From IMG/VR virus record IMGVR_UViG_3300045988_009603: a stretch of 64,000 nt of DNA; one strand, written 5' to 3'. The notes beneath the pieces are model-generated. The model had not been told where the DNA came from, did not search any database, and worked only from the letters and a program-made list of their open reading frames with translations. The translations under genes and the position numbers were made by a program. The DNA comes from a virus. Its lineage: Duplodnaviria; Heunggongvirae; Uroviricota; Caudoviricetes. Positions 37,863 through 38,893 of the stretch are shown here, in pieces (the stretch's first letter is position 1; every line of letters begins with the position of its first letter).

Positions 37863-38450
37863 ATGAAACTGTTAAATATCAAAATCACTGGTACTCGTCC
37901 TTTCCTGAGCCACGCTGATACGCTGTCAGACCCATTAAATCCTCTGACAAAATATCACAAGTCTCTGTCCAGTAAACGTAAAAAGACTGACGAAGATTAT
38001 GCGCTCTTAGCAGAAAGCCAACTGGTAACTTCTTGTTACTACGATGAGCAACTAGGTTTTGTTATGAACGGTGAGATGATTGAGGCTTGCATCAAGTCTG
38101 GTGCGAAACTCAACAAACTTGGTAAGGTAATTGACCGAGCCATTATGCTGACAGATGTAGTCTTCCCAATGACTATCAAGAACTGTCCAGCAAACCCACA
38201 AGAACTTGCTAAGAATCCAGACTTCATCTATGCTAAGTCTGTTAAGATTGGTACAGCACGAGTTATGAGCTACCGTCCAATCTTCCGTGACTGGTCTGTA
38301 GAGTTTGGATTGATGTTCGATGAAGAGCAAATCACCAAAGAGGAGCTTCTAATGGTTCTTGAAAATGCTGGTAACCTTTGTGGTGTAGGTGATTGGCGTC
38401 CACGCTTTGGTCGTTTTTCTGTAGAAGTTATTTCAGAAGGTAACGTTTAA
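37863..38450 (+). CDS. hypothetical protein (cassette gene 1)
   Basis: Start at ATG 37863 with GTGGAG RBS; 195 aa; no recognised motif. Confidence 0.5.
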
Positions 38451-38452
38451 TT

Positions 38453-38893
38453 ATGAATACAAAAGCATTAGCAGCAAAGTTTAGTTACGGTGACACTGTA
38501 TCACATTCTGAGATGGACACCTTCTTAGGTATTGTGAAGCCAACTTATCAAGGTGACATTGTTAAGTACGAAGATGAAATGAAGGCTTATGCGCTTACAC
38601 GTCTAAACCGACTTGAAAAGTTTATTGAAAAACTTCTTAAAGAAGAGAAGATTTATCTGGTTGCTTCAATGGGTGTTGGTTATCGTGTGGTTGAACCTAA
38701 GCATCAAGCAACTATTGCAAAACGCAAAATGTCTGGTAAGATTGGTCGTGCTTTAAAGCAAGCCACTCAAGCGATTGAGAATGTGAACACTATGGCACTT
38801 AGTCATCAAGAACGTTCACGACTGATTGAACAGCAAAATCACTTAGCTGCTATGAAAGCTAATATTAACAAGCAACGCAGAAAACCTTTCTAA
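38453..38893 (+). CDS. hypothetical protein (cassette gene 2)
   Basis: 146 aa; charged/helical, basic C-terminus; no recognised motif. Confidence 0.5.
   Translation: MNTKALAAKFSYGDTVSHSEMDTFLGIVKPTYQGDIVKYEDEMKAYALTRLNRLEKFIEKLLKEEKIYLVASMGVGYRVVEPKHQATIAKRKMSGKIGRALKQATQAIENVNTMALSHQERSRLIEQQNHLAAMKANINKQRRKPF

Follow-up and report, generated by a model that had tools for sequence, protein, structure and literature searches.

Introduction

What is the function of two tightly linked phage genes that are preceded by a strong promoter, followed by a terminator and accompanied by repeated sequences on both sides? This question is raised by positions 37,863 to 38,893 of the window, by which we mean the whole stretch of 64,000 nucleotides of viral DNA analysed here (IMG/VR record IMGVR_UViG_3300045988_009603). 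A preliminary description, made from the letters of this stretch, had taken the pair for a cassette of unknown function, delimited by promoter and terminator, devoid of recognisable motifs and bracketed by repeats. It saw in this arrangement, from context, the typical look of accessory or counter-defence cargo and proposed profile and fold searches of both proteins. The window comes from a Felix O1-like myovirus of the subfamily Ounavirinae, and many Felixounavirus genomes of E. coli and Salmonella show 92-96% identity to its positions 37400-39300. We argue that the stretch 37459-39182 almost certainly constitutes a single type II locus of VIPR (Viral Interference Programmable Repeat) and belongs to the clade of Escherichia phage SUSP1 (NC_028808 27500-29510; PDB 36pp). 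Judged by its sequence, it is an already described system, nearly identical to the type example, and not a new kind.

VIPR was presented in two preprints of 2026 as a CRISPR-like, RNA-guided system of DNA silencing, in which copies of the Vipr protein polymerise along a vrRNA that consists of 9-16 YNNGG repeats and a pseudoknot tail (10.64898/2026.04.26.720920; 10.64898/2026.04.26.720927). In SUSP1 each pentamer is occupied by one Vipr protomer, the GGY bases being buried and the variable NN exposed; the NN string pairs with one strand of dsDNA, every third base of which is skipped, and the Vipr filament stays on the DNA and blocks transcription (10.64898/2026.04.26.720920; 10.64898/2026.04.26.720927). 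VIPR is said to be a form of RNA-guided DNA recognition older than CRISPR. RNA expression, RNP assembly, DNA binding and silencing have been demonstrated for SUSP1 only (10.64898/2026.04.26.720920; 10.64898/2026.04.26.720927), while for the phage of the window protein identity, guide anatomy, pseudoknot covariation and target sequence matches are established by the analysis given below.

Layout of the locus

The gene order in the VIPR locus is promoter, vrRNA U1, vrRNA U2, vipr, vap1, hairpin terminator, vrRNA D1 and vrRNA D2, with the following features.

37459..37486, plus strand: sigma-70 type early promoter, TTGACA-16-TATACT, 11/12 consensus positions
37516..37556, plus strand: type-A leader hairpin (CATCACTTAAGAG...TTTTTAAGTGATG) ahead of vrRNA U1
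37557..37667, plus strand: vrRNA U1, guide tract 37557-37631 (15 YNNGG units), pseudoknot tail 37632-37667
37666..37790, plus strand: type-B leader 37666-37704 and vrRNA U2, tract 37705-37754, tail 37755-37790
37793..37819, plus strand: third leader-like motif, lacking a guide tract and closely preceding the ribosome-binding site of vipr
37863..38450, plus strand: vipr, 195 aa, RAMP (Cas7/Csm3-like) vrRNA-binding protein, 192/195 identity to PDB 36pp_D
38453..38893, plus strand: vap1, 146 aa, Vipr accessory protein, 145/146 identity to SUSP1 agp038
38905..38927, plus strand: intrinsic terminator-like hairpin with UUCG loop and T-run (AGCCTC-TTCG-GAGGCT then CCTTTTT)
38921..39045, plus strand: type-B leader 38921-38959 and vrRNA D1, tract 38960-39009, tail 39010-39045
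39043..39182, plus strand: type-A leader 39043-39081 and vrRNA D2, tract 39082-39146 (13 units), tail 39147-39182

The individual elements named in the preliminary description were all recovered, namely the two ORFs of 195 and 146 aa lying 2 nt apart, the strong sigma70-like promoter before them, the UUCG-loop terminator after them, and repeat units on both sides of the gene pair, which exceed chance by far (see below). Its view of how they belong together did not hold. The functional unit takes in the repeat units on either side and extends beyond the interval from promoter to terminator, which therefore does not delimit it, and the repeats are guide-RNA genes of the same system and not brackets around it. 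Some 375 nt, including two complete repeat units, separate the promoter from the first ORF downstream of it; the promoter sequence is identical in SUSP1, and Felix O1, which lacks vipr, retains it with TATGCT as -10 hexamer. The terminator (folding energy -14.5 kcal/mol, z = -2.5) is the sole terminator-like site within 5 kb and has the same sequence in SUSP1. As the downstream vrRNAs are expressed in SUSP1 according to the preprint, this terminator must be leaky or bypassed, and since it stands between vap1 and D1/D2, read-through or an unrecognised promoter must supply these two guides. Searches of the window with Rfam at gathering thresholds and with a tRNA scan returned no match.

A small ORF (37305-37451) between ligase gene and VIPR promoter encodes a very hydrophobic protein of 48 aa. 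Judged by position, an annotated 147-nt ORF of phage UAB_Phi87 corresponds to it, and the SUSP1 sequence differs across this stretch.

Vipr and Vap1

A PDB sequence search with the first ORF returned chain 36pp_D, 'SUSP1 Vipr protein', with 192 of 195 residues identical (98.5%, E = 8.5e-129), and a profile of the ORF A family matches SUSP1 Vipr at E = 8e-80. The gene starts with ATG at 37863 and stops at 38448-38450, behind a ribosome-binding site GTGGAG at 37848-37853. An alternative GTG start is present at 37848; we prefer the ATG because it gives the same N-terminus as in the solved SUSP1 protein. The best PDB matches in a Foldseek search with the AF2 model of Vipr (pLDDT 95.4) were Csm3 and Cas7, which belong to type III and type VII CRISPR complexes, with E values around 1e-4 and TM scores around 0.5. 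Furthermore, all 13 residues that we chose from the contacts named in the SUSP1 structure paper are kept (H17, K33, R39, E71, M72, K82, G87, K88, R138, C173, D177, W178 and R179). ORF A is thus the small single-RRM RAMP with G-loop and thumb that characterises type II VIPR. Its relatives, proteins of about 190 aa, number in the hundreds in phages and prophages of Proteobacteria and Actinobacteria.

The second ORF, with its ATG at 38453 and its end at 38893, encodes a protein 99.3% identical to SUSP1 Vap1 (agp038). A homologue of ORF B directly follows vipr in 77 of the 79 IMG/VR loci in which a neighbouring ORF was found (80 loci in total), and the vap homologues of distant viral loci usually overlap the vipr stop codon. 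This constant pairing in distant viral loci implies that vipr and vap form an old two-gene module. In the AF2 model of Vap1 (pLDDT 94) a short strand-helix start leads into a long helix, which is followed by a beta-hairpin and another two long helices; fold searches with the model gave no convincing relative, and a Pfam scan of 40 Vap1 homologues gave only noise. Vap1 is reported to strengthen protection and silencing (10.64898/2026.04.26.720920; 10.64898/2026.04.26.720927). Binding to DNA is a predicted property of the vap1 product in type II systems.

Thus, of the searches proposed in the preliminary description, the profile libraries stayed silent (neither ORF matched Pfam, NCBIfam or PADLOC, and PHROGs placed both in families of unknown function), while fold comparison led to Csm3/Cas7 for ORF A and to no relative for ORF B. 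Its statement that the pair shows no recognisable motif is borne out to that extent; the label of unknown function falls, given the near identity of both products to SUSP1 Vipr and Vap1.

Guide-RNA genes

Two full repeat units and one truncated leader lie upstream of vipr and two full units downstream of vap1, and each unit is composed of a leader, a guide tract exactly divisible into 5-nt units, and a tail of 36 nt. GGYNN-periodic tracts gave 28 matches in four clusters where 0.01 were expected, all of them on the plus strand and none elsewhere in the 64 kb. The A/T-rich leader motif matched four times in 64 kb (0.18 expected), each time at the VIPR locus. The 74-nt stretch 37487-37560, which holds the type-A leader, folds with -20.9 kcal/mol (z = -3.1); the type-B leader has a small palindrome inside, and the third leader element, which has no tract, is also found in SUSP1. 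The guide tracts of U2 and D1 have 10 units each, or 11 if the pentamers TGAGG and CAAGG, respectively, are counted. These belong to the end of the leader, whose last pentamer in the YNNGG frame reads TGATG (37552-37556) before U1, TGAGG (37700-37704) before U2, CAAGG (38955-38959) before D1 and TGAGG (39077-39081) before D2. The NN of this pentamer agrees with the target at 8 of 12 bases in six guide-target pairs, and the guide may start one unit before the hypervariable part.

Among 18 related phages the 53 copies of guide tracts comprised 51 distinct ones, and the entropies of pentamer positions 1 to 5 were 0.44, 1.92, 1.90, 0.83 and 0.18 bits, positions 1, 4 and 5 being nearly fixed and positions 2 and 3 nearly random. 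The locus hence shows what defines type II, that is, vrRNA genes on both sides of vipr with 9-16 YNNGG repeats in which GGY is kept and NN is hypervariable, together with a conserved 3' pseudoknot tail. The tails fall into four sequence types, all compatible with one H-type pseudoknot whose helix 1 joins columns 1-4 with 15-18 and whose helix 2 joins columns 7-13 with 26-32. In 16 distinct tails from 12 phages, compensatory changes were seen at 9 of the 11 pairs, and 92.6% of the pseudoknot cells were paired, as against 28-38% after the partner columns were slid by 1-3; none of 500 shuffles reached the observed values.

In D2 the pentamer TCAGG stands four times in tandem (39107-39126), and in closely similar guides, those of IMG/VR locus L006 and of phage Andreotti, it stands three times. 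This difference in copy number suggests slippage.

Targets of the guides

The satellite named in the preprint was located through DNA similarity of its baseplate gene, a homologue of which occurs in 474 of the 5426 complete E. coli genomes. The satellite is an integrated island of about 11 kb that contains genes for a serine recombinase, a tape-measure protein and a baseplate protein; it sits either within a DUF72 gene or beside tonB. We scanned five satellite variants with the published xNN model, in which one base is skipped, and used 1000 permutations of each guide as null. U1 matched 27/30 bases in the tape-measure gene of two variants, which none of the 1000 permutations reached (null maximum 23). 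U2 matched the tape-measure gene at 17/20 (7/1000 permutations), and for D1 the same score of 17/20 was obtained in three variants, in the intergenic DNA upstream of the baseplate gene (21/1000). These two matches are only moderately significant as they stand; with the leader-derived unit included, both become 19/22, with 0/1000 permutations for U2 and 3/1000 for D1. The skipped base falls on the codon wobble position for U1 and U2, and skips of 0, 2 or 3 bases gave only background. As a positive control, SUSP1 guides 1, 2 and 4 matched the satellite variant of strain PAR at 88-91%; the guides of the window match variants of strains YJ1, GN25, H2 and E32511, among them GN25 and YJ1 for U1 and D1, and H2 for U2. 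D2 had no target of at least 80% in the five satellites or in the window, its best site reaching 19/26, or 21/28 with the leader unit (73-75%), with the skipped base on codon position 2. When the 5426 complete E. coli genomes were searched by hybrid-query BLAST, neither a better variant for D2 nor one above 27/30 for U1 came up. Within the 64-kb window none of the four guides rose above the permutation background (best 0.70-0.75), in line with the preprint, which reports no self-targets of at least 80% (10.64898/2026.04.26.720920; 10.64898/2026.04.26.720927). Foreign DNA is thus matched with a 1-nt skip, and own DNA is not, by U1, U2 and D1, D2 being without a target.

From these matches we infer that three of the four guides are directed at two places in the satellite, the tape-measure gene and the sequence upstream of its baseplate gene. 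As three guides match the satellite, the most likely role of the locus is to silence this element, by which the phage would otherwise be exploited. U1 and U2 would be transcribed from the early host-type promoter, followed by vipr and vap1, with D1 and D2 beyond the terminator. Vipr protomers would coat each vrRNA pentamer and expose its NN, as in SUSP1; the filaments on U1, U2 and D1 would then pair with satellite DNA, one base being skipped per unit, and block its transcription. Vap1 would enhance the silencing, again as in SUSP1, and with the satellite silenced its exploitation of the phage would be averted.

Among the five satellites, one carries a vrRNA of its own. This is a 14-unit vrRNA of the E. 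coli GN25 satellite (4125-4194 of locus L091, minus strand), which comes without vipr and has a pseudoknot tail with compensatory changes in the second helix. Its best match, 22/28 at 3455-3496 of L088, lies in the chromosomal flank of the H2 locus, outside the satellite. We did not find vipr in the satellites; satellites with their own vrRNA are also mentioned in the preprint.

Comparison with known systems

The closest known system is that of SUSP1, which sits at the corresponding place in its genome, flanked by the ligase gene and the next conserved gene, has the same types of promoter, leaders, terminator and pseudoknot tail, holds four vrRNAs in total and has the same satellite family as its target. 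The two differ in guide arrangement, which varies among close relatives (upstream plus downstream, 2 + 2 in the window, 1 + 3 in SUSP1 and 2 + 3 in others). All four guide sequences are different as well, and so are the satellite sites and variants matched, that of strain PAR being matched by SUSP1 and others by the window.

[quoted passage not shown] On the other hand, the window locus encodes two proteins only, one of them with a RAMP fold, and thus no multi-subunit effector. It has neither Cas1/Cas2 nor a second RAMP or large subunit, and the CRISPR array of identical direct repeats with unique spacers that would mark class 1 was absent from the repeat search. The VIPR period is 5 nt, with two bases read per unit and the target read with a 1-base skip, and every VIPR guide forms a gene by itself and has a pseudoknot tail of its own.

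A parallel in biology is the Vibrio phage ICP1, which, as Seed et al. are said to have described in Nature in 2013, carries a CRISPR-Cas system aimed at the PLE satellite; this system is reportedly complete and of type I-F, with target degradation and the acquisition of new spacers among its activities. In both cases a lytic phage has an RNA-guided system with guides matching a chromosomal satellite that parasitises it. The system of the window differs in that it consists of a single protein which, by analogy, would silence the target and not cut it, and no acquisition machinery was identified in its VIPR locus.

Distribution and alternative explanations

The neighbouring ligase gene was found in 260 phage records, about 118 of which have vipr at 90% identity or above, and 12 further records have only distant relatives. 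Carriers of vipr are mostly E. coli phages. In Felix O1 a mere 282 bp separate the ligase gene from the next gene, and neither Vipr nor Vap1 was detected by tblastn or with both family profiles in the 84 of 86 kb examined. The preliminary description was therefore right to regard the module as accessory and not part of core replication. Two records, GU169904 (Staphylococcus phage SA1) and MG065668 (Campylobacter phage A126), contain the Felixounavirus locus at 91-100% identity; their host attributions are probably wrong, or the assemblies mixed.

The other part of that description, counter-defence cargo, stands as far as a genetic conflict is concerned; as to the opponent, the guide matches indicate the satellite and other phages in place of a host defence. 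One could still suppose that a RAMP-like protein with decoy RNAs neutralises CRISPR-Cas or some other immunity of the host, as the module is accessory and variable among relatives and its RAMP fold resembles CRISPR backbone subunits. We hold this to be very unlikely, since the guides match the satellite or, in the case of vipr-less relatives, the vipr gene, and no host defence genes. Moreover, the published assays show DNA-targeted silencing programmed by NN and not inhibition of a host system, and neither protein matched a PADLOC model. Equally, a transcriptional repressor such as VIPR might silence early or late genes of the phage itself to time the infection, and our self-target scan covered 64 kb where related genomes have about 88 kb. 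The result of that scan, the same finding in the preprint and the fact that guides are almost wholly different between relatives about 92-96% identical in the region speak against such a role, and leave it extremely improbable.

The locus might also be taken for a replication origin, whose G/T-rich repeats with 10-nt phasing would be iterons and whose winged-helix-like ORF B would be the origin-binding protein. The 5/10-nt periodicity with A/T-rich stretches alongside would suit this, as would the neighbours of the locus (DNA ligase, DNA polymerase, dihydrofolate reductase and thymidylate synthase) and the arrangement of helices and beta-hairpin in ORF B, which is like that of DNA-binding proteins. 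We had considered an iteron-type origin with its initiator and dropped it when the PDB search gave Vipr and the variable positions spelled foreign sequence. ORF A is a solved RNA-binding protein; iterons are conserved, yet here three of five positions are conserved and two hypervariable, the variable bases spelling matches to foreign DNA. The 3' element shows compensatory changes of the RNA type in its pseudoknot, and about half of the relatives lack both genes. We give an origin hardly any credence and retain the VIPR locus as our reading.

Orphan guide RNAs in phages without vipr

The spacer that takes the place of the locus in Felix O1 still contains the promoter, a type-A leader, one vrRNA of 11 units and a pseudoknot tail.

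57632-57913 of NC_005282 (5633-5914 of L093, minus strand in L093): Felix O1 orphan vrRNA spacer

This compact layout without vipr is common to about 103 phage records. We examined 11 such phages (Felix O1, L093, along with L098-L103 and L106-L109), each of which has one or two vrRNAs. The YNNGG frame and the pseudoknot tail of these orphans are intact and their NN strings are unrelated between lineages, which makes them unlike decaying relics. The orphan guides were scored against the vipr-vap1 cassette of the window by the one-base-skip rule. The Felix O1 guide matched 20/22 bases within vipr at 38330-38362 (plus strand), its first ten units being perfect and the skipped base falling on the wobble position; the chance expectation of a perfect run of ten units in the searched space is 2e-7. 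Guides of the same lineage in BPS17L1, phiWec177, Sl26 and S.Kent 1-2-1 match 18-20 of 22 bases at this site, where most vipr alleles have TTG, not CTA, at one leucine codon, with the loss of one paired base. An independent guide of phiST56 matched 19/20 on the antisense strand over the initial 30 nt of vipr (37863-37892, minus strand), and the guides of A126 and HMD-P8 both had their best match at a third site, 37961-37990, with 75-78%. A vipr-matching guide was present in 6 of the 11 phages, and 7 of the 16 guides of vipr-less phages match vipr at 82-95%, whereas none of the 46 guides of 12 vipr-carrying phages exceeded 69% on the cassette (Fisher p = 2e-5). Furthermore, the orphan guides of the vipr-less Salmonella phages SP116 and UAB_Phi87 matched the E. 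coli satellite at 25/28 (8590-8631 of L092) and 21/22 (8811-8843 of L091), respectively, i.e., at 89-95%. Guides that match the satellite are thus retained in phages that lack the effector.

These matches raise the possibility, which we rate at somewhat under an even chance, that vipr-vap1 is a target as well as a weapon and that guides by themselves may serve as an anti-VIPR strategy. The orphan RNA would, during mixed infection, load on the Vipr of the rival and redirect it against the rival's own vipr-vap1 operon, and orphan guides matching the satellite would likewise borrow the rival's Vipr. A duller alternative is that the vipr-matching guides are self-targeting relics that drove the deletion of the cassette, which could have been lost when the type-A leaders of the first and last units, being nearly identical, recombined. 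The vipr-less relatives may be compared with archaeal viruses, in which Medvedeva et al. reportedly described, in 2019, mini-arrays, that is, orphan or mini CRISPR arrays in viruses without cas genes. Like these, the vipr-less relatives keep guides that would need a borrowed effector and that match a close competitor. In contrast to them, their guides match the effector gene itself, and the RNAs are of VIPR type and not CRISPR repeats and spacers.

The occurrence of vipr-matching orphan guides seems unreported. In the preprint the guides of the P. fulva clade were gathered by a search for the Vipr protein (10.64898/2026.04.26.720920; 10.64898/2026.04.26.720927), and those of the SUSP1 clade were searched against E. 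coli chromosomes and plasmids. If the latter were gathered in the same manner, as we assume, the orphan pattern lay outside the view of that work, and neither the word "orphan" nor "Felix" is present in its text.

Significance

Our analysis adds nothing to the mechanism of VIPR and amounts to an independent recovery, from raw sequence, of a system reported in 2026. It does reproduce on another phage the one-base-skip rule with independent guides, the satellite as target and the covariation of the pseudoknot. The lead that it provides is that relatives without the effector keep diversifying guides, many of which match the effector gene. If functional, such orphan guides would constitute an RNA-only countermeasure to VIPR and would help to account for the fact that no more than about half of this phage group has the cassette.
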